Virus record (IMG/VR): IMGVR_UViG_3300035136_000035
Reading direction: 5' to 3' (one strand)
Length of the DNA stretch: 20,000 nt
DNA from: an uncultured virus (IMG/VR IMGVR_UViG_3300035136_000035)
Lineage: Duplodnaviria > Heunggongvirae > Uroviricota > Caudoviricetes
The notes under the pieces are model-generated. The model was not told where the DNA came from. It made no database searches and saw nothing but the letters and a program-made list of their open reading frames with translations. Made by a program: the position numbers and the translations under genes. Of this stretch, positions 1,525-20,000 are shown piece by piece (the first letter of the stretch is position 1; each line of letters starts with the position of its first letter).

Positions 1525-1855
1525 TTTTTTAATTCAACCTCATAAAATAGATGAAGATTTTTTATTAGAAATTAGTAATAAAACAGGAGTTTATTTAGAC
1601 CAAGTAAAATATATATTTAGGCATAATGTTATGTCAATAGACCAGATGGCTTTTTTACTTCGTAGAAGTAGGATGGTAATAAATTATGCTTTACAAAGTA
1701 AGATTGATTCAAAAACAAAAGAAGAAATTGAACCTTCATTAACATCAATTAATCCATTTCAAACTGCAATTAATCCAGGACAAACATTAATTGTTATTGA
1801 TGATAAATGTATTGAATTTATTAAGCATAAATTAAGAATGGTAAAATTTTATTAA
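1508..1855 (+). CDS. Hypothetical protein, possible HTH DNA-binding regulator
   Basis: Segment MSIDQMAFLLRRSRMVINYAL resembles a helix-turn-helix; weak support. Confidence 0.4.
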   Translation: MNYMNDFLIQPHKIDEDFLLEISNKTGVYLDQVKYIFRHNVMSIDQMAFLLRRSRMVINYALQSKIDSKTKEEIEPSLTSINPFQTAINPGQTLIVIDDKCIEFIKHKLRMVKFY

Positions 1856-1856
1856 C

Positions 1857-2201
1857 ATGAAAGAATTAATATTAGGGAATTACAAAATAGAAAGTGATAA
1901 ATTTGGATTTATTATTTCAGAAAAGAAAATAAATAAAGGTCAATCTAAAAACAAAAAAAGTAATCCTGATAATATTGGTAAGGAATATTTTACTTATCAT
2001 ACTTATCATTCAAATATTGAAAGTGTAGTAACTAATCTATTAGAAAGAGGGGCAAGAGAATATATAGACGATTTAAAAAAAATGTTTTCTTTTTATGTGA
2101 AGATTAAAAATTCATTTCATAATTTTTTGGAATTAGAATTACAACGAAACATAACGTCAAAAGATAAAGCAAGTGTTTATAAAAGCACTAAAGTAACATA
2201 G
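1857..2201 (+). CDS. Phage hypothetical protein; C-terminus runs into the first attC-like site
   Basis: ORF track; the last ~16 codons lie within the element at 2149-2227. Confidence 0.7.
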   Translation: MKELILGNYKIESDKFGFIISEKKINKGQSKNKKSNPDNIGKEYFTYHTYHSNIESVVTNLLERGAREYIDDLKKMFSFYVKIKNSFHNFLELELQRNITSKDKASVYKSTKVT

Positions 2202-2227
2202 CGCATTAATTTTATACATTGTTATAC
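2149..2227 (-). repeat. attC-like site C1 (arms poorly matched, probably chimeric)
   Basis: ATAAC (2151-2155)...GTTAT (2221-2225). Right arm AATTTTATACATTGTTA (2208-2224) is identical to 2771-2787 in C3. Confidence 0.6.
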
Positions 2228-2239
2228 GCTTTTAATTAG

Positions 2240-2476
2240 GTGATTATGAATTTATTTAAGCAAAGAAAAACAACCCTATATAATGGGCAAAAAGTAAAAG
2301 AAGGCGATAAAGTATACTTCATAAATTCAGACGGTGTTAAATGTGAAGGATTAATTGAAAGAAGGCTTTTTGATTGCGTTCATTCAGATACAAATGAGAG
2401 GTTGAAAAAAGGCACATTATTCTTTTGGAACAACTCATTTAAGCCTTCTGATTATAGAAGTTTGGTTGTGTCTTAA
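2240..2476 (+). CDS. Cassette-borne hypothetical protein (ATG at 2246 is a likely start)
   Basis: ORF sits between C1 and C2. Confidence 0.7.
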   Translation: MIMNLFKQRKTTLYNGQKVKEGDKVYFINSDGVKCEGLIERRLFDCVHSDTNERLKKGTLFFWNNSFKPSDYRSLVVS

Positions 2477-2480
2477 TTGC

Positions 2481-2572
2481 ACACAAAGGACAGCGGTAAG
2501 AGTAGGCCGCTTTGTAGACTGCTCAAATTTAGTAATAGCTTTCATGCGGCTTACTTTTACCGCATGTTATAA
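2481..2572 (-). repeat. attC-like site C2 (core AAC changed to AAA)
   Basis: ACACAAA-GGACA-GCGGTAAGAGTAGGCCGC (2493-2510) ... GCGGCTTACTTTTACCGC (2546-2563)-AT-GTTA. 18-bp stem with 2 G:T positions. Confidence 0.75.
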
Positions 2573-2584
2573 ATTGTAAAAATT

Positions 2585-2740
2585 ATGGACGAATTTGAAG
2601 TACAATGTAATGAGTGCGATTGGCAAGGTTATGCACTTGATTTAGTAAGCAAAACAGCAGATTTAGACGACAAAGATTTTAAATACTGTCCTAATTGCGG
2701 GTCGGACGATATAGATGATATTGATTATGAAGATTATTAA
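2585..2740 (+). CDS. Cassette-borne 51-aa acidic zinc-ribbon protein MDEFEVQCNECDWQG...YCPNCGSDDIDDIDYEDY
   Basis: Hand-translated, absent from the ORF track. Two CxxC pairs; fills the interval between C2 and C3. Confidence 0.75.
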   Translation: MDEFEVQCNECDWQGYALDLVSKTADLDDKDFKYCPNCGSDDIDDIDYEDY

Positions 2741-2790
2741 TAACGTTGAGTATAAAATTTCGTTTTAATGAATTTTATACATTGTTACCG
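2738..2790 (-). repeat. attC-like site C3 (minimal)
   Basis: TAAC (2741-2744)-GTTGA-GTATAAAATT ... AATTTTATAC-ATT-GTTA (2784-2787); perfect 10-bp stem. Confidence 0.75.
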
Positions 2791-2832
2791 TGTCGTTTTG
2801 TGCGGTGGTAGTGTATAGCAAAATAAATAAAT

Positions 2833-3036
2833 ATGATTATAGATAATAGTAGATATTACGACACAGATGTACATTGTAGTACATGTGGAAAGGTTTACAG
2901 ACCTTCTAAAGATGCAGATATTAAAGAAAAGCTTAATGTACCTCCATTAGTTGCAAATATTTTTTGCAGCAGAGAGTGTAAAGAGAAGTACGATGAATTT
3001 TTAGAACAAAACCGAGCGGTGGCAAATGCACGGTAA
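2833..3036 (+). CDS. Cassette-borne small zinc-finger protein (CxxC...FCSxxC)
   Basis: CSTCGK and FCSREC motifs. The stop codon TAA is part of the TAAC core of C4. Confidence 0.7.
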   Translation: MIIDNSRYYDTDVHCSTCGKVYRPSKDADIKEKLNVPPLVANIFCSRECKEKYDEFLEQNRAVANAR

Positions 3037-3260
3037 CGGACAGGTATATGAGCCGTGCGGATTAACCCACGGACAATCGAACGAGGTACATAGTAATAAT
3101 TTTAAAATATTTTTTAGGGATGGAAAAATCTACAGAAACATTAGTAAAAATGATTGAATTAAATAATTCAATTAATCAGGTTAATAAAGAAAATGAAATG
3201 ACAAAAAATAACGAAACTCCAGCAACCGACAAGGCTATGCAATATGAGTCTGTGTTAGCA
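3031..3260 (-). repeat. attC-like site C4 (long loop carrying the start of the next gene; arms degenerate)
   Basis: TAAC at 3034-3037 and GTTA at 3254-3257. Each core matches its cassette partner end (9/9 and 13/14). Inner arms are only partly complementary (AGCCGTGCGG vs CCGACAAGGCT). Confidence 0.6.
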
Positions 3261-3401
3261 AACGTTTTATCAAATACAGACCATTGGTTTGACTGCAATT
3301 TGAGAGCTTTGCTTGGCGCAGAAATAGCCCTTATTAAAAAGGGGAAAAAGAAACAGATTGACAGAAAAATGTTAGCAGACTGGATTACTAACCACCTTTA
3401 A
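3120..3401 (+). CDS. Cassette-borne hypothetical protein starting inside C4 (alternative start 3198)
   Basis: Frame reads through the C4 arm as ...TPATDKAMQYESVLANV... Confidence 0.6.
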   Translation: MEKSTETLVKMIELNNSINQVNKENEMTKNNETPATDKAMQYESVLANVLSNTDHWFDCNLRALLGAEIALIKKGKKKQIDRKMLADWITNHL

Positions 3402-3409
3402 ATGTTTGC

Positions 3410-3455
3410 TAACTTGTTTATATAAACAATGAAAAATATTTCACTAATGGAAAAC
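3410..3455 (-). repeat. attI-like site of the left array
   Basis: 45/46 identical to the reverse complement of 18607-18652. Identity ends at the GTTA core. Contains the perfect palindrome TTGTTTATATAAACAA (3414-3429). The repeat is certain; the attI role is inferred. Confidence 0.6.
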
Positions 3456-3504
3456 TCTGAACAGGTAAGGAATAGAATAGTTGAACTCGTAAAAATTTAA
3501 AATT

Positions 3505-3735
3505 ATGACAGATTTAAAAAACGATATTATATTATTTAATAAGTGGTTATTCGATAATAATTTTATTCCTAATAATTCTTTTTTATGGTTTGATCACACA
3601 AAAAGTATAGATGAAATATTATTTTTTGAATTAGAAGAATTATTTGATGCATTTAACAATGGATTAACTATTGAAGAATTAATACAAAAAAAGAATAATG
3701 ATATAAAAATTTTTTTTAATAAATATTGTTTATGA
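3505..3735 (+). CDS. Hypothetical protein
   Basis: ORF track; aaaattATG start. Confidence 0.65.
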   Translation: MTDLKNDIILFNKWLFDNNFIPNNSFLWFDHTKSIDEILFFELEELFDAFNNGLTIEELIQKKNNDIKIFFNKYCL

Positions 3736-4394
3736 ATATGATAGAAAATAATTATTTAACAAATATTCCAAAAGATGTTTCAAATTATGGATTATGCAAA
3801 GTATTTGCTGTAAGGAGAGAAATAATACATATAAAACATATTTTAACTGAAATATTCGTTAGAAGAACTATTGATATTGAATATTATTTAATACAATTAG
3901 ATATGTCATTATTTAGTTATATTGAATATATTACAAATAGAATTAGGAAAATACATCATTTTACAAGAAAATACTTTAATGATATTGATAAAATTATAAA
4001 GGATGATAGAGATAAATTTTTCCCTACATTGAATTTATATAAAGGATTAAATAATTGTATTGTTTTAGATTTTGATGATGTTATAACTAAAAATAATTTT
4101 AATGAACTTTATGAACTATGTTGTATAAGATCAATAGTTCATGTATGTTCAGCGAATCCTACTATTGATATTAGCTTTTTTAATAAAAGAGGATTAAGTA
4201 TTCCATATCAAATTCATTCTATGAAAGGTAAAATAAAAAAGATAAAAAGATTATTAGAGATACAAAAAAAATATGATTATGTTTTTTATGTAGATAATGA
4301 GATTGAATATTTAAAATTTGCATGGATATTTGGGATTCAAACATATCATTGGAATAACAAAGAAATAAAATATTTTTCTCTTAAAAGTAGATAA
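3726..4394 (+). CDS. HAD-superfamily-like protein (C-terminal phosphatase-like domain)
   Basis: IVLDFDDVIT (motif I DxD), VCSAN (motif II), VFYVDNEIEYLKFAWIFGIQTYHW (motif IV-like). Confidence 0.55.
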   Translation: MFMNMIENNYLTNIPKDVSNYGLCKVFAVRREIIHIKHILTEIFVRRTIDIEYYLIQLDMSLFSYIEYITNRIRKIHHFTRKYFNDIDKIIKDDRDKFFPTLNLYKGLNNCIVLDFDDVITKNNFNELYELCCIRSIVHVCSANPTIDISFFNKRGLSIPYQIHSMKGKIKKIKRLLEIQKKYDYVFYVDNEIEYLKFAWIFGIQTYHWNNKEIKYFSLKSR

Positions 4395-6857
4395 ATGAAA
4401 CCTATTTTACAAAATATTGATTTTGGTAAATTACCACCTTCTGCAATTGATATAGAATGTGCTATTTTAGGGGCTGTTTTAAATTATCCAGAATCATTAA
4501 ATGAAATAACAGATATATTAATTCCAGAATCATTTTATAAGGATGAACATCAGAAGATATATTCAGCCATATTAGAACTTGATAGGAACGATAATAAGAT
4601 TGATATATTGACAGTTCAAGAAGAATTAAGAAAAAAAAATGAACTTGAAGATATAGGCGGTCCTGTATATATAACAGGATTGATTTCAAAAGTAATATCT
4701 TCTTCTCATATATTAGAACATGCACGTATAATAAAGGAAAAATATTTAGCTAGGGAATTAATTATGATATCTTCTGAAATTAATACTATGGCATTTGATG
4801 ATTCAGTAGACATATCTGATCGTATAGATAGAGCTAATCAATTATTTGATGACTTTAATGAGTTAGCAGCCGGCAAGTCATATTTTAAACATTTAAATGG
4901 AGTCCTTAATAAAGTTATGGAAATATTTGTAAAGAGAGAGGCATTGGCAAAAGAAGGTAAATTGGTAGGATTAAGAACTCCTTTAAAGGAACTTAATAAG
5001 TTAACTGGCGGATGGAGAAGTGAGTTGATTATTATTGCTGCTCGCCCTGGGGCGGGAAAATGTCTTGGAAGAGGGACAAAGATATTAATGTATGATGGAA
5101 GTTATAAATGTGTTGAAAATATTAATAAGAATGATTTGCTAATGGGAATTGATTCAAAACCACGAAAAGTATTACAAACTTGTATTGGAATTGATCAAAT
5201 GTATCTTATTAAACAAAAAAATGGATATAATTATAGATGTAATGGAAATCATATATTATCATTAAAAGTTAGTGGAAAAGATTTTCAAAAAACGTATGGT
5301 AAATTATATAATATATCTGTTAAAGATTATTTTAATTTACCAAATAGATTACAAGATAAATTAAAAGGGTATAAAATTGGGATTGAATTTGAAGAAAATA
5401 ATGATTTATTAATACCACCTTATTTATTAGGAGTATGGTTAGCTGATGGATCATCATCAAAATCAGTAATACATAATCCAGATATAGAAATTGAAGAATA
5501 TATAAAACAATATTGTTATGAGAACAATTTTAAGTATTCAAAAAAAATATATGATTTAAAAAACTGTCCAGAACATCGGATAACTGGAGAGTATTATAGA
5601 AATTTTTTACAATTACTTAGAAAATTAAATATATTAAATAATAAACATATTCCGAAAGAATATCTTATTAATTCAAGAAAAAACAGATTAGAATTATTGG
5701 CAGGTTTATTAGATGGAGATGGTTATAGATATGGTTTTTCTTATGAAATATCTCAAAAAAGAGAAATATTAGCACAGCAAATATTATATCTGTCAAATAC
5801 ATTGGGATTTGGAACATCTATATCGCATGAAAAGAAAAGAATAAAATCGATAGACTTTGAAGGATATTATTACAGATTACATATTAGTGGAGAAATAAAA
5901 GATATTCCTTGTAGAATTAATAGAAAAAAAGCACCTAATAGAAAAAAGTTAGCTAATTATTCAACAACTTATGGTGTTGAAATAATAAAAGATAAAATAG
6001 ATTTTTATTATGGGTTTGAATTAGACGGAGATGGATTATTTTTATTAGAAGATAATACAGTAACACATAATTCTGCAATAGCATTAGCTATATCAAAAAC
6101 ATTAGCATTTGAAAATATTCCAGTCTGTATATATAGTCTTGAAATGTCTGATTATTCGTTAGGAGAAAGGCTTGTATATGCAGAAGCAGACATGGATGAT
6201 GGAGATATATATAAGGCTAATCATGGGTACATGAATGATACTTTATGGGTGAAGATTAAAAGGTCTAAAGCAAGACTCGAAAAACTTCCTATATATATTG
6301 ATGATAATTCTTGTGTAGATGTTAATTATATAAAATCTCATTCAAGGATAATGAAGAAAAAGAATCTATGTGGTATTATTATAATAGATTATCTTCAATT
6401 AGCCTCTGGTAAAAGAGAAAGAGGCAAGAGTAAGGCTGAAATGATAAGCGATATTTGCAGGGAATTAAGAACACTAAGGAAGAATTTAGACATTCCAATT
6501 ATAGTTTTAAGCCAGTTAAATAGGGAGGTAGAAAAAAGAGGAGGAGATAAAAGACCTCAATTATCAGATATAAAAGAAAGTGGAGGTGTGGAAGAAAGTG
6601 CAGATATGATTATGTTTATTCATCGTCCAGCATATTACAATGTTCCTATTGATGAAAAAGGCAATTCGACCGAAAGAATGGGAGAACTAATAATTTCCAA
6701 GAATAAGAACGGTCCTATAGATACAATAAAATTCAGTCATAATAAAAGTCTTACTAAAATAACTGATTATTTACCAATTAAAGAAGAAAAAGAACCTGAA
6801 AAGATAAAAACACAACCGGATTTATTTAAAAATAGTTTAGATGATGTACCATTTTAA
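4395..6857 (+). CDS. dnaB: Replicative DNA helicase DnaB, intein-containing
   Basis: LPPSAIDIECAILGA N-terminus, AARPGAGK|S Walker A, SLEMS, IIIDYLQL, LSQLNREVE, RPQLSDIKESGGVEESAD, ELIISKNKNG. Confidence 0.97.
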   Translation: MKPILQNIDFGKLPPSAIDIECAILGAVLNYPESLNEITDILIPESFYKDEHQKIYSAILELDRNDNKIDILTVQEELRKKNELEDIGGPVYITGLISKVISSSHILEHARIIKEKYLARELIMISSEINTMAFDDSVDISDRIDRANQLFDDFNELAAGKSYFKHLNGVLNKVMEIFVKREALAKEGKLVGLRTPLKELNKLTGGWRSELIIIAARPGAGKCLGRGTKILMYDGSYKCVENINKNDLLMGIDSKPRKVLQTCIGIDQMYLIKQKNGYNYRCNGNHILSLKVSGKDFQKTYGKLYNISVKDYFNLPNRLQDKLKGYKIGIEFEENNDLLIPPYLLGVWLADGSSSKSVIHNPDIEIEEYIKQYCYENNFKYSKKIYDLKNCPEHRITGEYYRNFLQLLRKLNILNNKHIPKEYLINSRKNRLELLAGLLDGDGYRYGFSYEISQKREILAQQILYLSNTLGFGTSISHEKKRIKSIDFEGYYYRLHISGEIKDIPCRINRKKAPNRKKLANYSTTYGVEIIKDKIDFYYGFELDGDGLFLLEDNTVTHNSAIALAISKTLAFENIPVCIYSLEMSDYSLGERLVYAEADMDDGDIYKANHGYMNDTLWVKIKRSKARLEKLPIYIDDNSCVDVNYIKSHSRIMKKKNLCGIIIIDYLQLASGKRERGKSKAEMISDICRELRTLRKNLDIPIIVLSQLNREVEKRGGDKRPQLSDIKESGGVEESADMIMFIHRPAYYNVPIDEKGNSTERMGELIISKNKNGPIDTIKFSHNKSLTKITDYLPIKEEKEPEKIKTQPDLFKNSLDDVPF
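5061..6071 (+). mobile_element. Intein (337 aa) with LAGLIDADG homing endonuclease, inserted in the DnaB P-loop
   Basis: Starts CLGRGTKILMYDG after GK and ends VTHN followed by Ser. Block B CNGNHIL; endonuclease motifs LLGVWLADG and LLAGLLDGDG. Confidence 0.93.
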
Positions 6858-7221: not shown

Positions 7222-7610
7222 GTAAACTAGACATTGAAAATATTGATCCAATTGTAAAAAAAGCATGGGAATTATTAGATGAATTTAATGAAAAGACATT
7301 AATTCCTATGAAAAACAATTTAGAAATTCAATGGAATGAATTACAAAATGGTATGAAAATTGAGAATTATGATATTTCAAAAGCTAGGTATGAAAAGTTT
7401 TATAATATATATCTTAGTTGTAAAGAAGCGTTGGATGATTATATTTCTTTATTAGTATCATTTTATAATATAAAGATTCAAATAGAAAAGAGTAAAATTA
7501 AAGAAAGTGTAGAAAAAGGAAGATTATTACCAAGCCAGATTACAGTTACAAAGTCTATAATAAATCTCATGTATGAATTATTTGATTATTATGAAAGGAA
7601 AAATAAATGA
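7218..7610 (+). CDS. Hypothetical helical protein
   Basis: ORF track; ATGA overlaps on both sides. Confidence 0.7.
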   Translation: MSKLDIENIDPIVKKAWELLDEFNEKTLIPMKNNLEIQWNELQNGMKIENYDISKARYEKFYNIYLSCKEALDDYISLLVSFYNIKIQIEKSKIKESVEKGRLLPSQITVTKSIINLMYELFDYYERKNK

Positions 7611-8791
7611 AAACAGATAATTTAACATTTTATAGGATACCATTACATACTGATGCATGGTATAGATTCAGGACAACAGGCTTAACAAAAGAAGATGCGA
7701 AACAATATAATTGTCCTGTTTTTACAGGAGGTGTCGGATCTTCTGAAATAGCTACAATATTAAGGCATCCACCATCTGAAAAAGCAAGGCCAATTATTCA
7801 AGATTATTATCATTGGAAATTAGGGACTATTATACCAGATAATGAAACAACTGAATTAATGATAGGAGGATTGGAAGATGAAGAAAGGATTAAAAATAGG
7901 TGGAGATGTTATGCTGGCGAAAATGATTTTATTGATAGATATTGGAATTGGTATAATGCACCTCCAAATGAAAAAAGTAAATATATTATCAGGAATGCTA
8001 AACGTATTAATGCTTATATAGTAAATAAAAAATATCCCTGGTTATTTAGTTCATTTGATTTTTGGGCTGAAAAAAATTCTCATTCATTTGACGGAATAAT
8101 TAAACTGGAAGGTTTTCCACTTGAAACAAAAAGTACTTCTTATTTTTATATTAGAAATTTTGAAGATCAATTTCCTGATTCGTTTAACATACAAGTACAT
8201 CAAGAGATGATTATATCTGAATCTGATTATGCAGAAGTAGGATTATTAGTTGATAGGAGGTTCAGGTGTATACCAGTCGAACGAAATGAAAAGCTTTGTA
8301 ATTGGATTCTTGAAAAATCGTATGAATTTTGGCAAACAGTTCTTAAAGGCAGGGAATATCTTGTTGAAAGAAATAAAGCCTTAGAAAAAAATAACATCGA
8401 AGAATTTAATAAATTTCAGGCTTATATAGACAGTTTAGAACCATTACCGGACGACAATCCTGCTTATGAAGATTTGATCAAAGAGAGACACGTTCAAGAT
8501 ATCGAGATGGTAAAAGGAAGTATAGAAGATTACAAGAATGCTAAATTATATGATTCTATTCTTGAATATGAAAAATTACTTGGTTCTAAAAAACAATTTG
8601 CTAAAAATTTATTATTAAAAAAATTAGATGATAATAATGCAGGTCAAATTGATTTTGATAAACTAGGAAAAGTAACACATATAATAGAGGGTAAAAAAAC
8701 AAATCCTACTTTTAGAGTAAGTTTAAAAGAATCAGTAAATAAGAAATCAATAAAAGAAGAATTTGATAAAATTAATTTTAATAAATTATGA
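7607..8791 (+). CDS. YqaJ-like / lambda-exonuclease-family recombination exonuclease
   Basis: TDAWYRFR...GVGSSEIATIL, GLEDE, YPWLFSSFDF, LETKS, IQVHQEM match the PD-(D/E)xK YqaJ pattern. Confidence 0.85.
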   Translation: MKTDNLTFYRIPLHTDAWYRFRTTGLTKEDAKQYNCPVFTGGVGSSEIATILRHPPSEKARPIIQDYYHWKLGTIIPDNETTELMIGGLEDEERIKNRWRCYAGENDFIDRYWNWYNAPPNEKSKYIIRNAKRINAYIVNKKYPWLFSSFDFWAEKNSHSFDGIIKLEGFPLETKSTSYFYIRNFEDQFPDSFNIQVHQEMIISESDYAEVGLLVDRRFRCIPVERNEKLCNWILEKSYEFWQTVLKGREYLVERNKALEKNNIEEFNKFQAYIDSLEPLPDDNPAYEDLIKERHVQDIEMVKGSIEDYKNAKLYDSILEYEKLLGSKKQFAKNLLLKKLDDNNAGQIDFDKLGKVTHIIEGKKTNPTFRVSLKESVNKKSIKEEFDKINFNKL

Positions 8792-10118: not shown

Positions 10119-10568
10119 ATGTATAAAGAAAAAATAATCTTAACAATTTTAGGAGACCCAAAAGCACAAAAAAGACATCGACATTTTTCTAAAAAATTTA
10201 ATAATGGAAAAGAATTTTCTGGTACTTATGATCCAAGTGCTAAAGAAAAAAAAGATTTTTTATTAACTGTTTTAAATAACAAACCGGAAAAACCATTTGA
10301 ATGTCCTATTTGTATAAAATTTTATTTTCATTTTTCCAGACCAAAAAATCATTATGGAACAGGAAAAAATTCTAATAAATTAAAATCAAATGCACCTTCT
10401 CTTTGTTCAAAAAAACCAGATTATGATAATTTATTAAAATTCGTAACAGATGCTTTAAATAAAATATATTTTAAAGATGATGCACAAGTATGTACTGGTA
10501 GTTTTTATAAATATTATAGTGAGAATCCAAGAACTGAAATAATAATAATTCCTTTATATGAAAGATAA
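10119..10568 (+). CDS. rusA: RusA-family Holliday junction resolvase
   Basis: GDPKAQKRHR N-terminus and KKPDYDNLLKFVTDALNKIYFKDDAQV catalytic motif. Confidence 0.92.
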   Translation: MYKEKIILTILGDPKAQKRHRHFSKKFNNGKEFSGTYDPSAKEKKDFLLTVLNNKPEKPFECPICIKFYFHFSRPKNHYGTGKNSNKLKSNAPSLCSKKPDYDNLLKFVTDALNKIYFKDDAQVCTGSFYKYYSENPRTEIIIIPLYER

Positions 10569-12535: not shown

Positions 12536-13789
12536 ATGGAAAATACAACATCATTAGTAAAAAAAACAAGTAATGCACCTGCATTTTTAGAAGATTCATT
12601 TCAAACACTTGAAAAAGCATTAAATTATGCTAATTTATTATTAGAAAGTAAACTTGTTCCTGATCATTTTTATGAAAAAGGAAATGATAATAAACCTGAT
12701 TATACAAAAGGAAAACCAGGTGCATTATTAATGGTAATGCAACATGGTATGGAATTAGGATTTACTCCAACACAATCATTACAACAAGTAGTTCCTATAA
12801 ACGGATTATTAACAGTAAAAGGAGATGGATGTAAAAGTAAAATACTTCATTCTGGATTTTGCGAATTATGGAAAGAAGAAGAAACAGGTTCTATTGAAAA
12901 AGAAGATTATTCTATAAAAATAACTTCAAAAAGAAAAGATACAGGAGAACAAATAAGCCGTATATTTAGTGTTGATTTGGCTAAAAGGGCTGGATTATGG
13001 ATAACTAAAGAAAGATTATCAGGGCAAAATGGTTATAAATGGAAATTAAGTGCATGGTATAAATTTCCTGATCGTATGATTAGATATCGGGCATTAGGAT
13101 TTATAGCTAGAGATTTATATCCAGATGTATTACAAGGATCCTATATGTTTGAAGAAGTAAGAGATAATCCTGATGAAATGTCAACTACTATAACCACTTC
13201 TGATGGAAATATAATTCAATTACCTGAATCTAAAACAGAACATTTAAAACAAATATCAGATAATAAAAGTTCTTCAATTGTAGAAGATTTGGAAAAGAAA
13301 GATGAATTAATAAATTCTCAAAAAGAAAATCAGAATAAAAAAGAAATCAAAGAAGATAAACCTAAAAGAAGGGGAAGGCCAAAAAAAGACGAATCAATAG
13401 AAAATAAAGCCGTAGACGAAAAAAAACAAGAAGTGGATACAATTACTAATGAAGAAAAAAAAGATGAACCAGTGCAGTCTGAATTATCCACAGACAATAA
13501 ATTATTAGGTAAATATGGTAATCAAGGGGAAGTCTTTGTTAAAAATCGTATAGAAGTTATTAAAGAAAAATTAGCAAACATATTACCTTTACAGGAAAAT
13601 GGAGAAAGGGGATTTAGTGAAGTAAATGATTTATATTTTACCTTAACAGAAGATTTAGGAATTTCAGAAGAAAAATTTTCAAATATAAAAGTTGAGGTTC
13701 TTGAATTTGATCAATTCACTACATTAGAAGATATATGTTTTAAAGGAACAGAAGAACAGATATTGAAATTAATTGAAAAAGCTAAATAA
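12536..13789 (+). CDS. RecT-like single-strand annealing protein with a long charged C-terminal extension
   Basis: GMELGFTPTQSLQQVVPING, FSVDLAKRAGLW, AWYKFPDRMIRYRALGFIARDLYPDVLQG..EE; same operon as the YqaJ exonuclease. Confidence 0.8.
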   Translation: MENTTSLVKKTSNAPAFLEDSFQTLEKALNYANLLLESKLVPDHFYEKGNDNKPDYTKGKPGALLMVMQHGMELGFTPTQSLQQVVPINGLLTVKGDGCKSKILHSGFCELWKEEETGSIEKEDYSIKITSKRKDTGEQISRIFSVDLAKRAGLWITKERLSGQNGYKWKLSAWYKFPDRMIRYRALGFIARDLYPDVLQGSYMFEEVRDNPDEMSTTITTSDGNIIQLPESKTEHLKQISDNKSSSIVEDLEKKDELINSQKENQNKKEIKEDKPKRRGRPKKDESIENKAVDEKKQEVDTITNEEKKDEPVQSELSTDNKLLGKYGNQGEVFVKNRIEVIKEKLANILPLQENGERGFSEVNDLYFTLTEDLGISEEKFSNIKVEVLEFDQFTTLEDICFKGTEEQILKLIEKAK

Positions 13790-13947: not shown

Positions 13948-14197
13948 AACAAAATCAGGGCGCCGGTTTACAATAGCCGGTGTTCCTGATAAAGATAAAT
14001 TAAAGATAGGATTAGCAATATGCAATCCAAAAGACCAGTTTTGTAAAAAGATAGGAAGAAGTATTTCAGAAGGAAGGGCTAAAAATAAAACTTATTATTT
14101 TGAACTTTCTAATGATTTTAAAGAAAATATTCAAATAGTTAGATATTTTTCAGAAGTAATAATAAGAGAATGGAATTATCCATATAAAAAACGATAA
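13922..14197 (+). CDS. Conserved phage hypothetical protein
   Basis: GLAICNPKDQFCKKIGRSISEGRA matches a common phage GxAxCxPxDxFxKxxGRxIA motif. Confidence 0.7.
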   Translation: MKTIFIHGKTKSGRRFTIAGVPDKDKLKIGLAICNPKDQFCKKIGRSISEGRAKNKTYYFELSNDFKENIQIVRYFSEVIIREWNYPYKKR

Positions 14198-14198
14198 T

Positions 14199-14393
14199 AT
14201 GAAAAAAGTAATGCAAATAATGAAAACGGAAGCGCACGGGTACAACAAATATTTAACAGACAAATATTTGAATAATCTTACTATTGAAGAATTAAGATGT
14301 TTCGTACATCCACTTTCAAAGGAATACTACGACAAGATAATCAAAGAAATTGAACGACAAAAATCTAAACAAAATGAAACCAAGAAAATTTAA
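14199..14393 (+). CDS. Hypothetical protein
   Basis: ORF track. Confidence 0.6.
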   Translation: MKKVMQIMKTEAHGYNKYLTDKYLNNLTIEELRCFVHPLSKEYYDKIIKEIERQKSKQNETKKI

Positions 14394-14862
14394 ACTTATT
14401 AAAAAGTATCCGAAAGCAATTGAATTAAATATTGATCTTATTGTTGAATGGGATGAAAAAAAACTTTTTTATATTGCATTAATAAATAATAGTATTTGTT
14501 TTTTCCCTAAAGAAGAAATAGAAAACTATCATGGATTTTGGCAGGAAATAAAAGAAGAACCTGTTTTAATTACGGAAGATGGGGAAAAATTGTTTGAAGG
14601 TGATGAATATTGGTTTATAGATGAAGAATTTATAGCTTATCCAAATATAGTAGAAGATGGATGCGGAAAACGAAAAGATTACAAATATTTTTCAACCAAA
14701 GAATCAGCCAAAAAGTGGATAGAAGAAAACAAGCCTAAATGGAGTGATAAGGATATGATTGAATTTGCCGAAAAATGGGAATATGATAAACATCTATTAT
14801 GTTATGATATTAAAAAAGCATTAAAAACAAAAGAATATGCTAAAAAAGAAAAAACAGATTAA
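14374..14862 (+). CDS. Phage hypothetical protein (ATG 14374 preferred over TTG 14350)
   Basis: ORF track; MKPRKFKLIKKYP...LITEDGEKLFEGD. Confidence 0.65.
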   Translation: MKPRKFKLIKKYPKAIELNIDLIVEWDEKKLFYIALINNSICFFPKEEIENYHGFWQEIKEEPVLITEDGEKLFEGDEYWFIDEEFIAYPNIVEDGCGKRKDYKYFSTKESAKKWIEENKPKWSDKDMIEFAEKWEYDKHLLCYDIKKALKTKEYAKKEKTD

Positions 14863-15217
14863 ACAAGACGGTAAAGTATTATCTCAAAAAAAAGCGTTTT
14901 ATGAAGCATTTATATATTGGAAAGGAAACAATTTTCTTACTGGTAAAAAAACATTATTAGAATATTTAACTAATTCTAATTTTGCTCATGTTTTACCCAA
15001 AGGACAATTCAGATATTTTAAATATTACCCTAAAAATATAGTAATATTAACATTAGATCAACATACTTTATTTGATAATTTTACAGGTGAAAAATTTAAA
15101 ATCAGAGAAAAAGAACATCCAGAAGAAAATTGGGATAAATTATTTAACTTAGTAATTGAATTACAACAAGAATATGCTGTTTGGATTAAAGAAAATTCTC
15201 ATACCTATAAATTATAA
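14837..15217 (+). CDS. HNH-like nuclease-fold protein
   Basis: FAHVLPKG...KNIVILTLDQHTLFD gives H-N-H spacing; the zinc-binding cysteines are absent. Confidence 0.5.
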   Translation: MLKKKKQIKQDGKVLSQKKAFYEAFIYWKGNNFLTGKKTLLEYLTNSNFAHVLPKGQFRYFKYYPKNIVILTLDQHTLFDNFTGEKFKIREKEHPEENWDKLFNLVIELQQEYAVWIKENSHTYKL

Positions 15218-15391
15218 ATGGAAAGATTATTTCAAATAAATATAGGATATGCTTGTTTTGGTATAATAAGCGAAAATGATAAAATAATTCAAACAGCCCC
15301 AATAGGAAGATGGATGATAGGAAAAAGTCTTCAAGAAATAAAGCCTTATCTCAAAAGCAAAAAAGCTAAAGTAATTGAAATAAAAAGATGA
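15218..15391 (+). CDS. Small hypothetical protein (57 aa, MERLFQINIGYACFGII...APIGRWMIGK...)
   Basis: Hand-translated; abuts the upstream stop and has an ATGA overlap downstream. Confidence 0.7.
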   Translation: MERLFQINIGYACFGIISENDKIIQTAPIGRWMIGKSLQEIKPYLKSKKAKVIEIKR

Positions 15392-15813
15392 CATTAAATT
15401 TTACAACAAAAGATAAATTATTACAACGAGCTAATTCTTTGGAATTTTTTAAAAAAGATTTAACCCAATTATATACTCCAGAAGAATATTCAGAAATAAA
15501 AGGAGGAGGTTTAGTTAATTGGATAAATGCAAATGAAAAATATTATTTAGAAAAAGCTATTATAGATAAAATAAAAATAATACACGAAGTAATAAATAAA
15601 CATGGAAATGATTCAATAAATAAATATAAAGAAATTACTGAATATCCAGATAAAAGTCATCCTGCATATTATGCATTTCAAATATTAAAAAATTTTGGAA
15701 TAGATTGGGTAGATGAATTGTTTATTCCAATGTCAAAAAAAGAATTTAATATTTATCTTGAAATATATAATGAAGTTTTTTCAAAGTATTTAAATAAAAA
15801 AGCCCGGCATTAA
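15388..15813 (+). CDS. Hypothetical protein
   Basis: ORF track; last gene of the rightward operon. Confidence 0.7.
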   Translation: MTLNFTTKDKLLQRANSLEFFKKDLTQLYTPEEYSEIKGGGLVNWINANEKYYLEKAIIDKIKIIHEVINKHGNDSINKYKEITEYPDKSHPAYYAFQILKNFGIDWVDELFIPMSKKEFNIYLEIYNEVFSKYLNKKARH

Positions 15814-15828
15814 CCGGGCTTAATTTTT
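15796..15828. terminator. Bidirectional rho-independent terminator
   Basis: Stem AAGCCCGG (15800-15807) / CCGGGCTT (15814-15821) with an A run on the left and a T-rich run on the right, between convergent stop codons. Confidence 0.85.
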
Positions 15829-16273
15829 AACTAAATTCTAATCCAACTTTATTTTTAATAGCTTCTGTTGCTCCTTCTATAAATTGTTTTGTTTTTTTAT
15901 AAAATTCAGTTTCTTTTTCATCTTCATTTAACAGTTTTTTAAGTTCAGGAACAATTTTTTTAATATTCATTAAACTTAAATTTCCATCACAATCTGAATG
16001 ATTTAGTAATTTATGTAAAGGATTAGGTTTAAATGATCTCCATTTTAATGGTAGTATTTTTTGAAATTCTCTAATAAGAATCATTTCAACCTCATCTCCT
16101 TTTGGATATAAACTATTAAGTAAAGAGAACATATTATGTGTTTCATTAGAATAAAAACCTTCCATTAAATCTAATGGTATTCCTATTCTTTTTGCCAATT
16201 CTTTTCTATATCTATGAAATGATGAATAAGCTCCTTCAAAAGCATCATAACTAATATATAATCCCATAATCAA
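15827..16273 (-). CDS. Hypothetical protein
   Basis: ORF track; contains LLNHSDCDG; ends at the terminator. Confidence 0.75.
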   Translation of the reverse strand: MIMGLYISYDAFEGAYSSFHRYRKELAKRIGIPLDLMEGFYSNETHNMFSLLNSLYPKGDEVEMILIREFQKILPLKWRSFKPNPLHKLLNHSDCDGNLSLMNIKKIVPELKKLLNEDEKETEFYKKTKQFIEGATEAIKNKVGLEFS

Positions 16274-16551
16274 AATATTTTACGAATATTCTTGGAAAAT
16301 TTAAATACTAATTCACGATGTTCAGGAATAGTTACATTTTGCCTGGTAGAAATATTCCTGGCAAGTTTTTCTTTCCTTACAACAACTGTGAATTTACCAA
16401 AATTCCTGATTTCAATACTTCTGCCTTCTTTTAATATTTTAGGCACAATAGTAAAAAATCTTTCTAATACTTTTTGTGTTTCTTCTTTTTTTACACCAGT
16501 AATGTTACTGATGACGTCTGTTAATTCTTGTTTTGTTACGTTTTTTTTCAT
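16270..16551 (-). CDS. HU/IHF-family histone-like DNA-binding protein
   Basis: TKQELTDVIS...GRSIEIRNFGKF...RKEKLARNIST...IPEHRELVFKFS. Confidence 0.92.
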   Translation of the reverse strand: MKKNVTKQELTDVISNITGVKKEETQKVLERFFTIVPKILKEGRSIEIRNFGKFTVVVRKEKLARNISTRQNVTIPEHRELVFKFSKNIRKIF

Positions 16552-16571
16552 TGGTTAAATGGTTTAAAAAT

Positions 16572-16874
16572 TTAATCTACAACATTTCTAATTACATCTT
16601 CAAAAGGATCGTATTCTATTTGTTGGATTACTTCATAAGTTTCTCCTTTCTTCAATTCAATATCTGCATGCTCTTTTGTCCATCGCTCTATCCCTTCTTC
16701 TATAAAAGGCTTTTCAAGTAAATGCTTAATAGCGCAATTCTCTCCTGCTTTAATTATTACTTTTTCTTCTTCACGGATGATTTCACATTCTCCTGTTATG
16801 ATGTGTGAATGTCCGCTGACTTCACCACGTGCAATTACACGATTTCCTCTGTTTTGTTTTGTTTCTTTTTTCAT
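16572..16874 (-). CDS. Small His-motif partner protein of the DUF6745-like gene
   Basis: ARGEVSGHSHII...IKH...EHADIEL..GETYEVIQQIEYDP...VVD is the pattern I recall next to DUF6745 genes. Confidence 0.65.
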   Translation of the reverse strand: MKKETKQNRGNRVIARGEVSGHSHIITGECEIIREEEKVIIKAGENCAIKHLLEKPFIEEGIERWTKEHADIELKKGETYEVIQQIEYDPFEDVIRNVVD

Positions 16875-16887
16875 TTTAATTTAATTT

Positions 16888-18105
16888 TTATGTTTCACAA
16901 ATTGGTTGATTGAATTCTTGTTTTAAATTTAAAAGGCCAATATCTCCATGTCTTAATTGTATTTTTTTATTCTCAAACCCCCATGCCTTAGCTTCCCATA
17001 CATTTTTACATTCTGGTACTCCAAGAAAATATTGCCGTTCGGTTGAAGGACAAATAACATCCAAAAAATAGTAATTTTTTCCTGTTAATTCATCTTTTTC
17101 TTTTGATTTCCATAATTTAATAGAATAACCATATTGATCTTTATCTTCATCTATTATTTCAATACCTAATAATTCAGCATATTTTTTAACTCCAAGTATT
17201 TCTTTTAAACACCTTCTTTTTTCTGCATTTTTTTCATTTATAATAGTCTGTTTTGTTATTTTATTTTTATGAAATATCCAGTCTTTGTCAATTATTAATC
17301 CTTTCCAAGCACATACTGAATATCCATCTTCAAATTCAACAGCATAATTATTTTCACAATGTAATTGTTTTGATTCATTTATATTCACTTTAGTTGGCAT
17401 TTGAATTACAATACATAATCCATCCATTTGAATCATATCATATATATTAGAATTAATTAATTTTTTCCATTCAGTCCATAATTCTAAATTATAAGAAGGT
17501 ATTAATTCATTATTTATAAAATCATAAAAACAAGTCCATCCATAATCCCATATATTACCATAATAAGAAAATTTCTCCAGTTCAAATTTCCCCAGATTAT
17601 CCCTCATATTATCCCTCAGATTATTCCCCAGATTATCCTCAAGATTATTCCCCAGATTATTCCACAGATTATTCCCCAGATTATCCCTCAGATTAACCCC
17701 CAGATTATCCACCAGATTATCCACCAGATTATCCCTCATATTATCCCTCAGATTATTCCCCAGATTATTCCACAGATTATTCCCCAGATTATTCCACAGA
17801 TTATTCCCCAGATTATTCCACAGATTATTCCCCAGATTATTCCACAGATTATTCCCCAGATTATTCCACAGATTATTCCCCAGATTAGAAATATTTTTTA
17901 ATATATTTATAATAAGTTGAGACTGAAAAGGACTTTGGCAATACCAGATAAAAGGCTCTTTATATCCGCTGTTTTTATAAATATATTTAATGCTTGATTC
18001 TGCTGTTTTTTTATTTATTTTATAACCTTTGTAAACTTTATCATAATACTTTTTTAAGTATACAGGAATAAGTTTTTCTTGTTGTGGTGTTAATTTATCA
18101 ATCAT
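16888..18105 (-). CDS. DUF6745-like protein with an internal tetrapeptide repeat
   Basis: MIDKLTPQQ N-terminus; LHCENNYAVEFEDGY..AWKG, EKNAEKRR, VICPSTERQYFLGVP, EAKAWGF...P..ET C-terminal domain. Confidence 0.75.
   Translation of the reverse strand: MIDKLTPQQEKLIPVYLKKYYDKVYKGYKINKKTAESSIKYIYKNSGYKEPFIWYCQSPFQSQLIINILKNISNLGNNLWNNLGNNLWNNLGNNLWNNLGNNLWNNLGNNLWNNLGNNLRDNMRDNLVDNLVDNLGVNLRDNLGNNLWNNLGNNLEDNLGNNLRDNMRDNLGKFELEKFSYYGNIWDYGWTCFYDFINNELIPSYNLELWTEWKKLINSNIYDMIQMDGLCIVIQMPTKVNINESKQLHCENNYAVEFEDGYSVCAWKGLIIDKDWIFHKNKITKQTIINEKNAEKRRCLKEILGVKKYAELLGIEIIDEDKDQYGYSIKLWKSKEKDELTGKNYYFLDVICPSTERQYFLGVPECKNVWEAKAWGFENKKIQLRHGDIGLLNLKQEFNQPICET
17588..17887 (-). repeat. Coding tandem repeat, ~25 x 12 bp (NLGN/NLWN/NLRD/NLVD)
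   Basis: Units such as AATCTGGGGAAT and AATCTGTGGAAT on the minus strand, including about five consecutive perfect 24-bp dimers. Confidence 0.95.
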
Positions 18106-18516: not shown

Positions 18517-18633
18517 TTAAAAGTTTAAAGTTTTAATTATTAATATTCCTATAATTACTAATATAAGAAGTAGTGTTACAATTACTACATTTCTGCATCC
18601 TTCATTGTTTTCCATTAGTGAAAAATTTTTCAT
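18517..18633 (-). CDS. Small membrane peptide (38 aa, MKNFSLMENNEGCRNVVIVTLLLILVIIGILIIKTLNF) starting within the attI-like repeat
   Basis: Hand-translated; stop lies 2 nt before the next ATG. Confidence 0.45.
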   Translation of the reverse strand: MKNFSLMENNEGCRNVVIVTLLLILVIIGILIIKTLNF

Positions 18634-18652
18634 TGTTTATATAAACAAGTTA
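18607..18652 (+). repeat. attI-like site of the right array
   Basis: GTTTTCCATTAGTGAAAAATTTTTCATTGTTTATATAAACAAGTTA; inverted copy of 3410-3455 (45/46). Confidence 0.6.
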
Positions 18653-19012
18653 ACTGCAATTGGGTTTCAACCACATTTGTACAGGATGTCCATCCGGTCT
18701 AATTATCCAATGTTTGTTATCAAATAGCGTTTCACCTTCTATACCGTGACTGTCAATTGTAATATAAATACCATCTTCTGTTGGGCGTTCATCATTCGAA
18801 ACAACCCAACAGCCGTTAACATCACGTATAGGTAATGCCGCTGTTTCTTCGTTCGAACGTTCTGCCCGTTCACTTGCTCTTAACAAACTATTTCTTATCT
18901 CATTCAATTCCTTTAAATCTTGGCTTATAAATGGTTGTTCCCCGGGGTTTATTGCCATTACTCCGTTCATTATTCTTTCTAAAAAGTCTAGTGTTTTAAT
19001 AAAAAAATCCAT
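18650..19012 (-). CDS. Cassette-borne protein; N-terminal half encoded in the C5 loop, C-terminal half DUF551-like
   Basis: Reads through the C5 arm as TAALPIRDVNGC, then WVVSNDERPTEDGIY...HW...VQMW. The stop TAA is the core of the attI-like site. Confidence 0.65.
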   Translation of the reverse strand: MDFFIKTLDFLERIMNGVMAINPGEQPFISQDLKELNEIRNSLLRASERAERSNEETAALPIRDVNGCWVVSNDERPTEDGIYITIDSHGIEGETLFDNKHWIIRPDGHPVQMWLKPNCS

Positions 19013-19097
19013 CGCTCGTATTATTTAGTTTTATAACTCGTATTTAACTGTGTGCCAAATTGGATGGCGGCACGTACCCATACGTACACCGTTAGCA
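18814..19097 (+). repeat. attC-like site C5 (long, ~230-nt loop)
   Basis: TAAC-ATC-ACGTATAGGTAATGCCG (18817-18840) ... CGGCACGTACCCATACGT-ACACC-GTTA (19068-19094); complementary arms with a bulge. Confidence 0.75.
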
Positions 19098-19108
19098 ACA
19101 AGGCTACA

Positions 19109-19360
19109 TTACCGTTCTTTAAAACTACTTGCTATAAAAGTTGATTTTTCATCTTTGTAAACAAAAGATTGTTCAGACAATACTTTCATTACGTACCCGC
19201 TTGTATATTCTAATACGGTGTCTGTTTCAGAATCATAGTCTGCAACAATCTTATCACTCCATTCAAAAATTACTTTTACAGGTAAGTTTACAATTCTTAA
19301 ATCACCATCACCTACTGGAGTTTCTTTTATTTCAGGCATTTCCCATTTAAATTCTTCCAT
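19109..19360 (-). CDS. Cassette-borne acidic hypothetical protein
   Basis: Lies between GTTAGCAAC (19091-19099) and GTTGCTAAC (19386-19394). Confidence 0.7.
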   Translation of the reverse strand: MEEFKWEMPEIKETPVGDGDLRIVNLPVKVIFEWSDKIVADYDSETDTVLEYTSGYVMKVLSEQSFVYKDEKSTFIASSFKER

Positions 19361-19387
19361 TTTATTTCTCGTTTAAAACCGCCCAGT

Positions 19388-19478
19388 TGCTAACATAGTG
19401 TAGCCACAATAGGCGGAAAGTTATTACTAAATTTGAGCAGTCTACAAAGCGGCCTACTCTTACCGCTGTCCGTTAGCA
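19388..19478 (+). repeat. attC-like site C6 (chimeric)
   Basis: TGCTAAC (19388-19394)...GTTAGCA (19472-19478). 19422-19471 is an exact 50-bp inverted copy of 2488-2537; the other arm (ATAGTGTAGCCACAATAGGCGG) is different. Confidence 0.75.
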
Positions 19479-19484
19479 ATAATA

Positions 19485-19811
19485 CTACATCCGTTCTTCT
19501 TTAATGTTTGGAATAGGTATATTATCGCTAATTAATTCAAATAATTTTAAAAGCATTTTCCTTCTTGCTGCTAATATTTGTGATTTTACATCTTCCAATG
19601 TTCTACTGTCAGTAATTATAGACTCGCTCTCCTTGTAAACAATTCCATTATATATTATTAGCATATAGTAACGACACTTTGAGTAACCATGAGAGTTTGT
19701 TCTCCAATCAATCCATTGTTCAAATCTATCAAAACTTACCGTACTGTTGCTAACACACGGTAAAACTCCATTGCCTTCTTGTTTTTCGATATTTTGTTCT
19801 TCGTTTTTCAT
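19485..19811 (-). CDS. Cassette-borne hypothetical protein starting inside C7
   Basis: ATG at 19811 is in the C7 loop; reads through the arm as EGNGVLPCVSNS. Confidence 0.7.
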   Translation of the reverse strand: MKNEEQNIEKQEGNGVLPCVSNSTVSFDRFEQWIDWRTNSHGYSKCRYYMLIIYNGIVYKESESIITDSRTLEDVKSQILAARRKMLLKLFELISDNIPIPNIKEERM

Positions 19812-19881
19812 TTTATTATATTTTGATAATTTACCTCTCGTATTTATTACGGCAACGAGAGTTTACCGTCAAACGTTATTC
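19748..19881 (+). repeat. attC-like site C7
   Basis: TAAC-AC-ACGGTAAAACTCCATTGCC (19751-19775) ... GGCAACGAGAGTTTACCGT-CAAAC-GTTA (19851-19878). Confidence 0.8.
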
Positions 19882-19998
19882 ATCACCCCCTAAACTTTCG
19901 TTAAGTGAATCAAATTTATATGCAAATGTTAAGGAATCCAATTTCATTTGTCGAATTTCGAGTAATACATGAAACGAATCAAATTGAAATTTGGATTG
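19876..19998 (-). CDS. Partial cassette-borne ORF (...QSKFQFDSFHVLLEIRQMKLDSLTFAYKFDSLNESLGGDE)
   Basis: Hand-translated open frame from the window edge; its stop TAA is part of the C7 core. Confidence 0.55.
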   Translation of the reverse strand, partial: QSKFQFDSFHVLLEIRQMKLDSLTFAYKFDSLNESLGGDE

Positions 19999-20000
19999 TT

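Follow-up and report, generated by a model that had tools for sequence, protein, structure and literature searches.

The question raised by this locus is to which of its two neighbouring genes a recombination site belongs. The window, by which we mean the whole stretch of 20,000 nucleotides analysed here from the uncultured virus IMGVR_UViG_3300035136_000035 (Caudoviricetes), contains two arrays in which small open reading frames (ORFs) alternate with hairpin sites of the form RYYYAAC-N5-stem-loop-stem-N2-GTTRRRY. The logic of integrons is that a promoterless gene is followed by its attC site, that the genes are read outward from attI, and that the strand is chosen by means of extrahelical bases that a domain specific to the integrase IntI holds. 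An initial annotation of the window had proposed that here, in integron terms, the sites run antiparallel to the genes, with the crossover at the AAC that closes each gene, so that a cassette would be a site together with the gene after it. The crossover is indeed located within the AAC box, with which each site opens in gene orientation, or immediately after it, and we consider it very probable that the arrays of the window belong to a reversed-polarity, integron-like cassette system of phages of Flavobacteriia-type hosts. The core inference of the initial annotation is supported, and the observation on which it was built is partly confirmed. The enzyme of this system is not an integron integrase, and the names attC and attI are therefore used by analogy.

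Crossover at the AAC box

Taken alone, the window gave 6 matches with the site scanner (defined below) against 3 in a shuffle, barely above chance, and a single site, C2 (2477..2569, plus strand), folds better than its shuffles (-18.4 kcal/mol, z -3.73, with 0 of 200 shuffles as stable). Because only C2 does so, the thermodynamics of single sites cannot carry the claim, and the weight of the observation therefore rests on the relatives of the window.

Three IMG/VR contigs contain an exact copy of a 30-nt stretch of the 5' arm of C6, an arm that this site has in common with C2. Their sites are boxed by GCCTAAC and GTTAGGC and lie between small ORFs, and in two of the three contigs the sites are followed, some 2 kb downstream on their strand, by the gene of a tyrosine recombinase of 270 aa. 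The best family match of this recombinase is NF040815 (XerA_Arch), at 187 bits, which does not reach the curated cut-off of 220; against the integron integrase model TIGR02249 the recombinases score 152-162 bits, in two stretches, where the cut-off is 265. The best solved structure is XerA (4A8E, E 1.7e-37), with an alignment that runs from end to end. The second is VchIntIA (2A3V), which aligns in two pieces, and here residues 176-212 of the query (37 residues) stand opposite residues 175-259 of IntI (85 residues), so that the IntI-specific part, about 48 residues of VchIntIA 175-259, is missing. Searching with these two recombinases gave 47 viral loci that encode the family. Homologues (34-37%) carry the annotation 'integrase' in the Polaribacter phages Freya and Leef and in the Cellulophaga phage Ingeline.

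The sites are found on one side of the recombinase gene and in one orientation. In the 6 kb upstream of it there are 116 sites in its own orientation, 4 in the opposite one and 8 symmetric sites, the corresponding numbers downstream being 6, 6 and 1; at least two co-oriented sites are present in 21 of the 34 loci that have at least 3 kb of upstream DNA. The array ends in a lone RYYYAAC without a partner; a conserved AT-rich sequence comes next, and after 10-110 nt the match to the recombinase. A regular expression found this lone-AAC end in 30 of 43 loci, a few of which are doubtful by eye. Both junction repeats of the window match the conserved array-end sequence, which bears out the view that the attI-like repeat is at the correct end of each array for reversed cassettes. 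Read on its other strand, the array end has the order of a classical integron, namely integrase, attI, G|TT and cassettes. An attI adjoining the recombinase gene, at the place where arrays begin, is thus a feature of the relatives; the window has two copies of the sequence and no recombinase gene.

The clearest evidence on the crossover comes from the Polaribacter phages Freya_1 to Freya_10, whose genomes measure 43,978 to 48,920 bp. The aligned pieces of Freya_1, 2, 5, 8, 9 and 10 are 98.4-100% identical, and the differences between them are blocks bounded by AAC. In Freya_1, ...TTTACAAC is directly followed by the attI sequence and the integrase gene. In Freya_10, the same ...TTTACAAC leads into a 5-nt spacer and a hairpin whose loop contains an ATG; then come GTTAGCA, an ORF and CTGCTAAC, after which further units follow until TTGCTAAC joins attI. 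Freya_2, 5, 9 and 10 have ever longer arrays, with attI joined after the AAC at Freya_10 coordinates 0, 902, 3793 and 4097, respectively; the Freya_2 junction was read from the genome comparison and the end of the record, the first base of this genome not being covered. Freya_8 lacks Freya_10 1-902, from AAC to AAC, and Freya_6 diverges at 914, at most 12 nt past the AAC at 900-902, with about 440 nt absent from the compared Freya_10 stretch. Danklef, a different species, shares with Freya_10 a two-gene block of 1169 nt (99.6%) that extends from an AAC to 2 nt past the next AAC. Since the Freya attI junctions have only AAC in common, the exchange is site-specific and takes place in or right after AAC.

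It is worth adding that the 'integrase' annotated in Danklef_1 (L064, 5849-5980) measures just 132 nt, and that the array alongside it includes an adenine methylase. The alignment with Danklef covers no more of the Freya integrase gene than its 3' part (from Freya_10 4497 on), and the Danklef recombinase therefore seems to be truncated. An N6/N4 DNA methylase gene also occurs in the array region of a related viral contig (L001, 3785-4528, minus strand).

The same kind of junction was found at the locus itself, which is present in four wetland metagenome runs, two of them its possible source, with contigs aligned to 1500-4200. In one X3 contig, the end of the gene upstream of site C7 (...GATGAATAAAC) is followed at once by the spacer and 5' arm of C6, and about 763 nt after the C6 arm by the attI-like repeat. 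This junction describes an array that lacks exactly C7 and the 108-aa ORF behind it, from just after the AAC of C7 to the AAC of C6. A second X3 contig joins 2487 to 3410, omitting everything from the C2 spacer through the last gene of the plus array, and its left junction is without the expected TAAC. Both X3 variants are assembled contigs, not reads. With the crossover at the AAC box, each site travels with the gene downstream of it, as had been proposed from the window.

Comparison of the loci with one another leads to the same boundary. An all-against-all blastn search of the loci, from which near-identical pairs were removed, gave no high-scoring segment pairs (HSPs) that span an AAC by at least 25 nt on both sides, and 35 that span a GTT by this margin. 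Eight HSPs come from the upstream gene and stop at the AAC (+/-6), and 83 begin at the AAC and run into the site; 46 stop at the GTT and none begins at the GTT and runs downstream. Two homologous ORFs (L016/L031) agree at 96.7% over their final 60 nt, as far as ...CTAAC, and the sites that come directly after it, of 47 and 88 nt, are unrelated. Checking the linkage of gene and site in other genomes, a test that the initial annotation had suggested, gave a result in the same direction: in two pairs of full-length homologues the site in front of the gene is retained (identity 0.65 and 0.73) and the one behind it is not (0.47 and 0.41), the background identity having a mean of 0.44 and a 95th percentile of 0.70. 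This protein-homology test comprises five pairs, two of them full length, which is too few for it to stand alone.

The probable folded strand, and predicted start codons in the sites

The scanner accepts distances of 40-230 nt from AAC to GTT, an arm score of at least 20 and spacers of up to 8 nt. Over the family (49 sequences) it gave 287 matches, versus 35 in mononucleotide shuffles. A set of 140 sites was then drawn at a score of at least 22, with overlaps and near-identical loci removed. The first spacer is 5 nt long in 92 of the 140 and the second 2 nt long in 82, and there are two main length classes, a short one of 80-99 nt (47 sites) and a long one of 118-134 nt (58 sites). The boxes read (A/C)TAAC and GTTA(G/T), and the sites are therefore hairpins between RYYYAAC and GTTRRRY in the integron sense.

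Of the two strands, the gene-sense one forms the more stable fold in 130 of the 140 sites (mean difference 2.72 kcal/mol, Wilcoxon p ~2e-22), and in all five window sites that were folded on both strands. It also has more G:T pairs, with 2.69 per site as against 0.80. In attC, according to passages of Nivina et al. (2016, PMC5027507), the bottom strand, which is the one recombined, is likewise the more stable strand and the one with more G:T pairs. By this measure the gene-sense strand is the one picked out, and it is presumably the strand that folds and is recombined. The same passages describe two further features of attC: an unpaired central spacer of five to six bases per arm, and extrahelical bases which the recombined strand carries on the arm facing its AAC, the latter feature being the strand rule with the best experimental support. 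The present sites depart from this layout of spacer and extrahelical bases, and over the 140-site family the AAC arms have 39 bulged bases in total, the opposite arms 15.

Many of the long sites appear to contribute the beginning of the gene behind them. An ORF of at least 40 aa whose first ATG falls within the site and whose frame crosses the GTT is present at 33 of the 58 long sites, compared with 6 of 58 in the antisense control; in the short class there are 6 such sites of 47 in sense and 10 of 47 in antisense. The ATG in the loop is mostly 50-63 nt before the GTT, and GTT is itself a codon in 30 of 50 cases. The leaders end alike (…L-N-I-x-x-V-S…) because arm and box are alike. In three of the ORFs the loop encodes a charged N-region, the arm a hydrophobic stretch and the sequence after the GTT a Cys, as judged by eye on the pattern of the lipobox, and their N-termini look like a lipoprotein signal. 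The GenBank CDS calls Freya10_10 and Freya10_77 also start within sites. As far as can be read from sequence, a start and N-terminus encoded by the site holds for cassettes of the long class (33 of 58), including that of C7, and not for every cassette, with translation being predicted throughout. The initial annotation had extended it to all cassettes; that generalisation fails for the short class, and one of the examples given for it, C5, was wrong.

Elsewhere, conservation continues past the GTTA (GTTATACACAGTACGG...) to give about 120 nt of shared untranslated leader (L026 5693-8010, L016 3150-3420, L013 5260-5480). After such a leader of about 120 nt there is a recurring family of small genes (MSKEIREMI...), which occurs several times per array and behind sites of different classes.

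The -7 promoter consensus of Bacteroidetes is TAnnTTTG. This motif is not enriched in the 140 sites, with 22 occurrences in sense, 32 in antisense and 13 in shuffled sequence. One good match to TTTG-N-TAnnTTTG was noted in a loop (L009) and was dropped as a candidate promoter, the motif not being enriched over the 140 sites.

The mechanism that we propose is as follows. A small Xer-like recombinase without the IntI insertion would exchange DNA between the attI-like site upstream of its own gene and the hairpin sites, the gene-sense strand being the one that folds and is recombined. With the crossover at the AAC box, the cassette comprises spacer, 5' arm, loop, 3' arm, GTTRRRY, gene and RYYYAA. 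Each site belongs to the gene after it, and the genes face attI and the recombinase, as the mirror image of a classical integron. Site and gene being one unit, a site of the long class can hold a start codon and some 15-25 leader codons that are not broken by movement of the cassette; in long sites these codons would include the N-regions of signal peptides. We infer the recombination, the use of the strand and the translation from the loop ATG from sequence.

The two arrays of the window

The window is AT-rich (GC 21-29% over 14000-16800), and two GC-richer stretches, at about 2190-3455 (plus strand) and 18605-20000 (minus strand; GC 32-37% over 18600-20000), hold only small ORFs without a family. 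These are the two arrays, which are inverted and face each other on either side of a phage replication and recombination module. In gene orientation the same 46-nt repeat closes both, directly after TAAC (3411-3455 and 18651-18605). The plus copy (3406..3455) is made up of the terminal box TTGCTAAC (3406-3413) and the attI-like sequence (3414-3455). The minus copy (18605..18651), in which the terminal AAC box is at 18651-18649, fits the pattern of AAC and then a T-A/T-rich ATATAAA motif that precedes the recombinase gene in relatives. In metagenome contigs (runs X1 and X2) the repeated piece begins at 3411, at the AAC, with a word depth of 103-142 compared with about 20 around it; the attI-like repeat as a whole has 5-7 times the word depth of its surroundings. 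The arrays also have in common a piece of about 55 nt, the 5' arm and loop of one site (2489-2545 on the plus strand, 19470-19415 on the minus strand). The shared 47-nt site piece has a word depth of about 160-178 compared with about 20 in the same two runs.

The Pfam scan found no tyrosine recombinase among the 44 ORFs of the window, that is, none within 20 kb, and Rfam at gathering thresholds gave no match in the window. The attI-like copies (3414-3455, plus; 18648-18605, minus) flank the whole 15-kb replication module in inverted orientation, and the module could be inverted if a matching recombinase acts on them. After each copy there is a short ORF beginning MKN(I/F)SLMEN, which may be a remnant of something.

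Site C7, of the long class, measures 128 nt (19751..19878, minus strand) and consists of TAAC, a 5-nt spacer, 5' arm, loop, 3' arm, a 2-nt spacer and GTTA, with a stem score of 23. Its fold is -11.3 kcal/mol in gene sense as against -9.0 in antisense. The loop contains an ATG at 19811, from which the frame continues across the 3' arm and GTTAGC into the 108-aa cassette ORF (19485..19811, minus strand), whose first 21 residues come from the loop, 3' arm and GTTAGC of C7. This ORF has no Pfam or PHROG match, and its next in-frame ATG, read by eye, is only at about codon 49. Seven unrelated small proteins from other assemblies (P0003-P0009) share the 21-aa leader exactly, and a C7-type site therefore precedes many different genes in the phage population. 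Exact-word scans of the viral contigs with the leader DNA and with the junction repeat gave 0 matches each. An exact 37-mer of the window was likewise absent from viral and metagenome contigs, and megablast of the entire window gave no match among phage records.

The next site in the minus array is C6 (19387..19479), which consists of TTGCTAAC, GGACA, a 5' arm and loop as in C2, a 3' arm that does not match, and GTTAGCAA; it is poorly paired (stem score 11, fold z -1.46). It is followed by a cassette ORF of 83 aa (19109..19360, minus strand) of no known family and by site B (19037..19098, minus strand), which runs from TTGCTAAC to GTTAA, has an additional local hairpin in its 5' arm and is atypical in geometry (fold z -0.97, stem score 10). 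The last cassette ORF, of 120 aa (18650..19012, minus strand), has no family match, and its stop TAA is within the terminal GTTAAC box. The initial annotation had placed a further site, C5, at 18649..18820 (minus strand). This is an 18-nt inverted repeat, 83% complementary, that lies wholly inside the 120-aa ORF and has a stem score of 14, below the threshold of 20; it is probably chance or a relic rather than a working site.

In the plus array, the first site, C1 (2194..2224, 31 nt from TAAC to GTTA), is degenerate (fold z +0.82) and comes after a phage core gene (PHROG match, phrog_154). C2, of the short class, has an 18-bp stem with G:T pairs and an AAC-side box changed to CACAAA, so that its TAAC is lost. 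C3 (2741..2787, plus strand) is a mini site of 47 nt with spacers of 5 and 3 nt, a score of 20 and the loop TCGTTTTAATG. Mini sites of 43-47 nt with this loop recur (window 2741-2787, L023 9532-9577, L016 7927-7973, L001 ~3700-3730), and in near-empty units the loop TCGTTTTAATG stands between GTTAGCAAA and the TTTGCTAAC box, where two adjacent boxes make a small hairpin of their own. The site called C4 in the initial annotation (3034..3257, plus strand, 224 nt, from TAAC-GGACA to GTGTTAGCAAAC) has no pairing arms and a score of 11. The four cassette ORFs of this array, all on the plus strand, are at 2240-2476, 2585-2740, 2833-3036 and 3120-3401, the last starting between the two boxes of C4; the sole hints of a family are weak zinc-ribbon matches for 2585-2740, under the curated cut-offs. 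The fold z values of C7, C3, C6 and site B are -1.0 to -1.7, and these sites, like C1, are no better than shuffles.

The observation from which the initial annotation started was that three ORFs begin inside a site loop and are translated through the GTTA core. The peptides that it read there are in place (ESVLANV at 3246-3266, plus; IRDVNGC at 18809-18829 and LPCVSNS at 19743-19763, minus). The start in the loop is true of C7. It is not true of C5, since the ATG of that ORF (19012) lies downstream of the GTTA of the previous site, outside C5, and the C4 ORF starts between two boxes that have no arms. Similarly, the spacers of 5 nt after TAAC and 2-3 nt before GTTA are found in C3 (5 and 3) and C7 (5 and 2), and in C2 even though its TAAC is CACAAA, while C5, also listed, is not a convincing site.

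The module between the arrays includes a DnaB-type helicase interrupted by an intein with Hint and LAGLIDADG homing-endonuclease domains (4395-6857, plus strand), a RecE-like exonuclease (7607-8791), RusA (10119-10568), a RecT-like protein (12536-13789) and an HU protein (16270-16551, minus strand). A 405-aa DUF6745 protein is encoded by the ORF at 16888-18105, inside which there are 22 registers of a 12-nt tandem repeat (17542-17935, minus strand) that encode NLGNNLWN-like units.

Competing explanations and comparison with known systems

Several findings weigh against cassettes with the site in front. In a more sensitive blastn search, one pair of loci (L026/L029) can be aligned at 70% identity from about 60 nt inside the upstream gene straight on into the site, and gene bodies, or one gene family, are found behind sites of different classes. 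The seven proteins that share the C7 leader diverge right after Val-Ser (GTTAGC), and the only close homologue of the 108-aa body (P0002, 80%; its locus was not found in the viral or metagenome contigs) begins with another, short N-terminus. It follows that sites are not tied to particular gene bodies, and that the GTT, too, marks a boundary in the sequence. The gene-sense strand has three surplus unpaired bases on its AAC arm, as the classical top strand has, so that the extrahelical rule points the opposite way. Under canonical polarity each site would follow its gene and have its crossover at the G|TT of its 3' end, and the loop starts would be miscalled or due to chance fusion; these surplus bases, one identical leader on eight different bodies and one body with two N-termini would suit that reading. 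The arrays, however, end at attI in a lone AAC box and not in a full site; the indels of Freya and Danklef and the X3 variant all extend from AAC to AAC; no HSP spans the AAC or begins at the GTT; and it is the gene-sense strand that is more stable in nearly all sites. We therefore give canonical polarity hardly any credence. The sharing of leaders is read as the homogeneity of sites within a lineage, as in sedentary integrons, and exchange at the GTT end would be compatible with it too. Because it is the AAC arm that carries the surplus, the site is a mirror form and not a classical attC that has been flipped. In one classical site the spacer before GTT is equal or longer, and the initial annotation had argued from this; it was a weak basis, because the better-tested rule of the extrahelical bases points the other way.

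The window itself has no recombinase, and C1, C4, C6 and site B pair poorly, so that its arrays may depend on an enzyme encoded elsewhere or be decaying. The missing recombinase would also suit a model in which the hairpins are terminators or regulatory stem-loops and the genes are shuffled by homologous recombination between repeated hairpins, as has been proposed for the promoter-stem-loop cassettes of T4-type phages. Such a model can draw on the repetition of site sequences, seen in the depth of the 47-nt piece, and on the occurrence of the same 5' arm and loop with different 3' arms (C2 and C6; L002). It does not explain why the attI junctions are at a 3-nt box, the attI sequence having neither a hairpin nor further homology, or why the sites keep to one side of the recombinase gene and one orientation (116 against 4). 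Both the constancy of the 5/2 geometry and the G:T bias point to a folded single strand that is read by a protein, and the Bacteroidetes -7 motif is not enriched. We regard homologous exchange as very unlikely. A more serious possibility, though still the less likely one, is that the polarity is reversed and the loop ATGs are unused, the real starts being downstream of the GTTA and the leaders a by-product of GTT AGY, which reads Val-Ser. P0002 manages without the leader, the leader ORF in L026 comes to an end ahead of the real gene, such an ORF is missing from 25 of the 58 long sites, and leaders would be alike in any case where arm and GTTAGY box are alike. Translation from the loop is favoured over this by the excess of such ORFs in sense, by the distance to the next ATG in the 108-aa ORF, by the lipoprotein-like N-regions in loops and by the independent GenBank gene calls that use loop ATGs.

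In comparison with classical integrons (IntI, attI and attC, as in class 1 integrons and the Vibrio superintegron), the phage system is alike in having a tyrosine recombinase gene beside an attI-like site; mostly one-gene cassettes between imperfect hairpins with RYYYAAC and GTTRRRY, with the crossover at the AAC/GTT triplet; one strand that folds better and has more G:T pairs; and indels of whole cassettes between near-identical genomes. It differs in its recombinase, which lacks the additional domain specific to IntI and has XerA as its best match, and is thus not of the integron-integrase kind. It also differs in its order, since the genes point to attI and to the recombinase, which is downstream on the same strand, and the site is upstream of the gene rather than after it. 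Its sites have an internal loop of 5 x 2 nt in which the AAC arm has the surplus, whereas integrons have 5-6 nt in each arm and extrahelical bases opposite, and, unlike attC, the long sites hold start codons.

A CALIN (a cluster of attC sites without an integrase) is defined by two or more attC sites with no integrase nearby; the window has two arrays of hairpin sites and no recombinase within its 20 kb. CALINs between small ORFs in phages, including a Polaribacter phage, with methylase cassettes, are described in parts of Qi et al. (2023, PMC9892861), where the sites are taken as classical attC and tested with IntI1. The methylase genes in the arrays of L001 and Danklef resemble the cassettes of those CALINs. 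The main text of that paper does not contain the words 'Xer' or 'upstream', and its section 3.4 does not mention a phage recombinase, attI or reversed polarity. The Freya phages were isolated by Bartlau et al. (2021, PMC8776804), in passages of which 'integron' and 'cassette' do not occur. Literature searches, which did not cover supplements, found no paper on an Xer-type phage analogue of integrons or on reversed cassette polarity.

In the reverse integrons of Treponema and oral metagenomes, intI is upstream of the array, attC is still after the gene, and integrase and cassette genes are transcribed in one direction. The phage system is similar in that integrase and cassette genes share a direction, but its recombinase is downstream and its site is before the gene. 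The best sequence matches, NF040815 and 4A8E, liken the enzyme to Xer recombinases (XerA, and XerC/D at dif). It differs from these in scoring under the curated cut-off (187 versus 220) and in being borne by phages, beside hairpin arrays and not at a chromosomal dif. The promoter-stem-loop cassettes of T4-type phages are again different, as here the promoter motif is not enriched and the attI junctions share only AAC.

The nested arrays in near-identical isolates suggest a system that is working now in cultured marine phages. On balance we favour the wider view that flavobacterial phages have in it a gene-capture system of their own, of Xer type and active today in cultured Polaribacter phages, in which a mirrored site on the gene-sense strand would serve as a 5' expression module supplying the start codon and a leader or signal-peptide N-region. 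If this is true, a recombination hairpin would double as a 5' expression module, and surveys made with attC models would misorient these cassettes, assigning each site to the wrong neighbouring gene. The choice of a folded strand without the IntI domain, the use of a recombination site as a coding leader, and the accessory genes that phages trade would all become directly testable in this system. Set beside the logic of integrons, the phage system alters every one of its rules: the recombinase is from another branch of the tyrosine recombinases, the site comes before the gene, the genes are read in the direction of attI, and the site shows a mirrored asymmetry.

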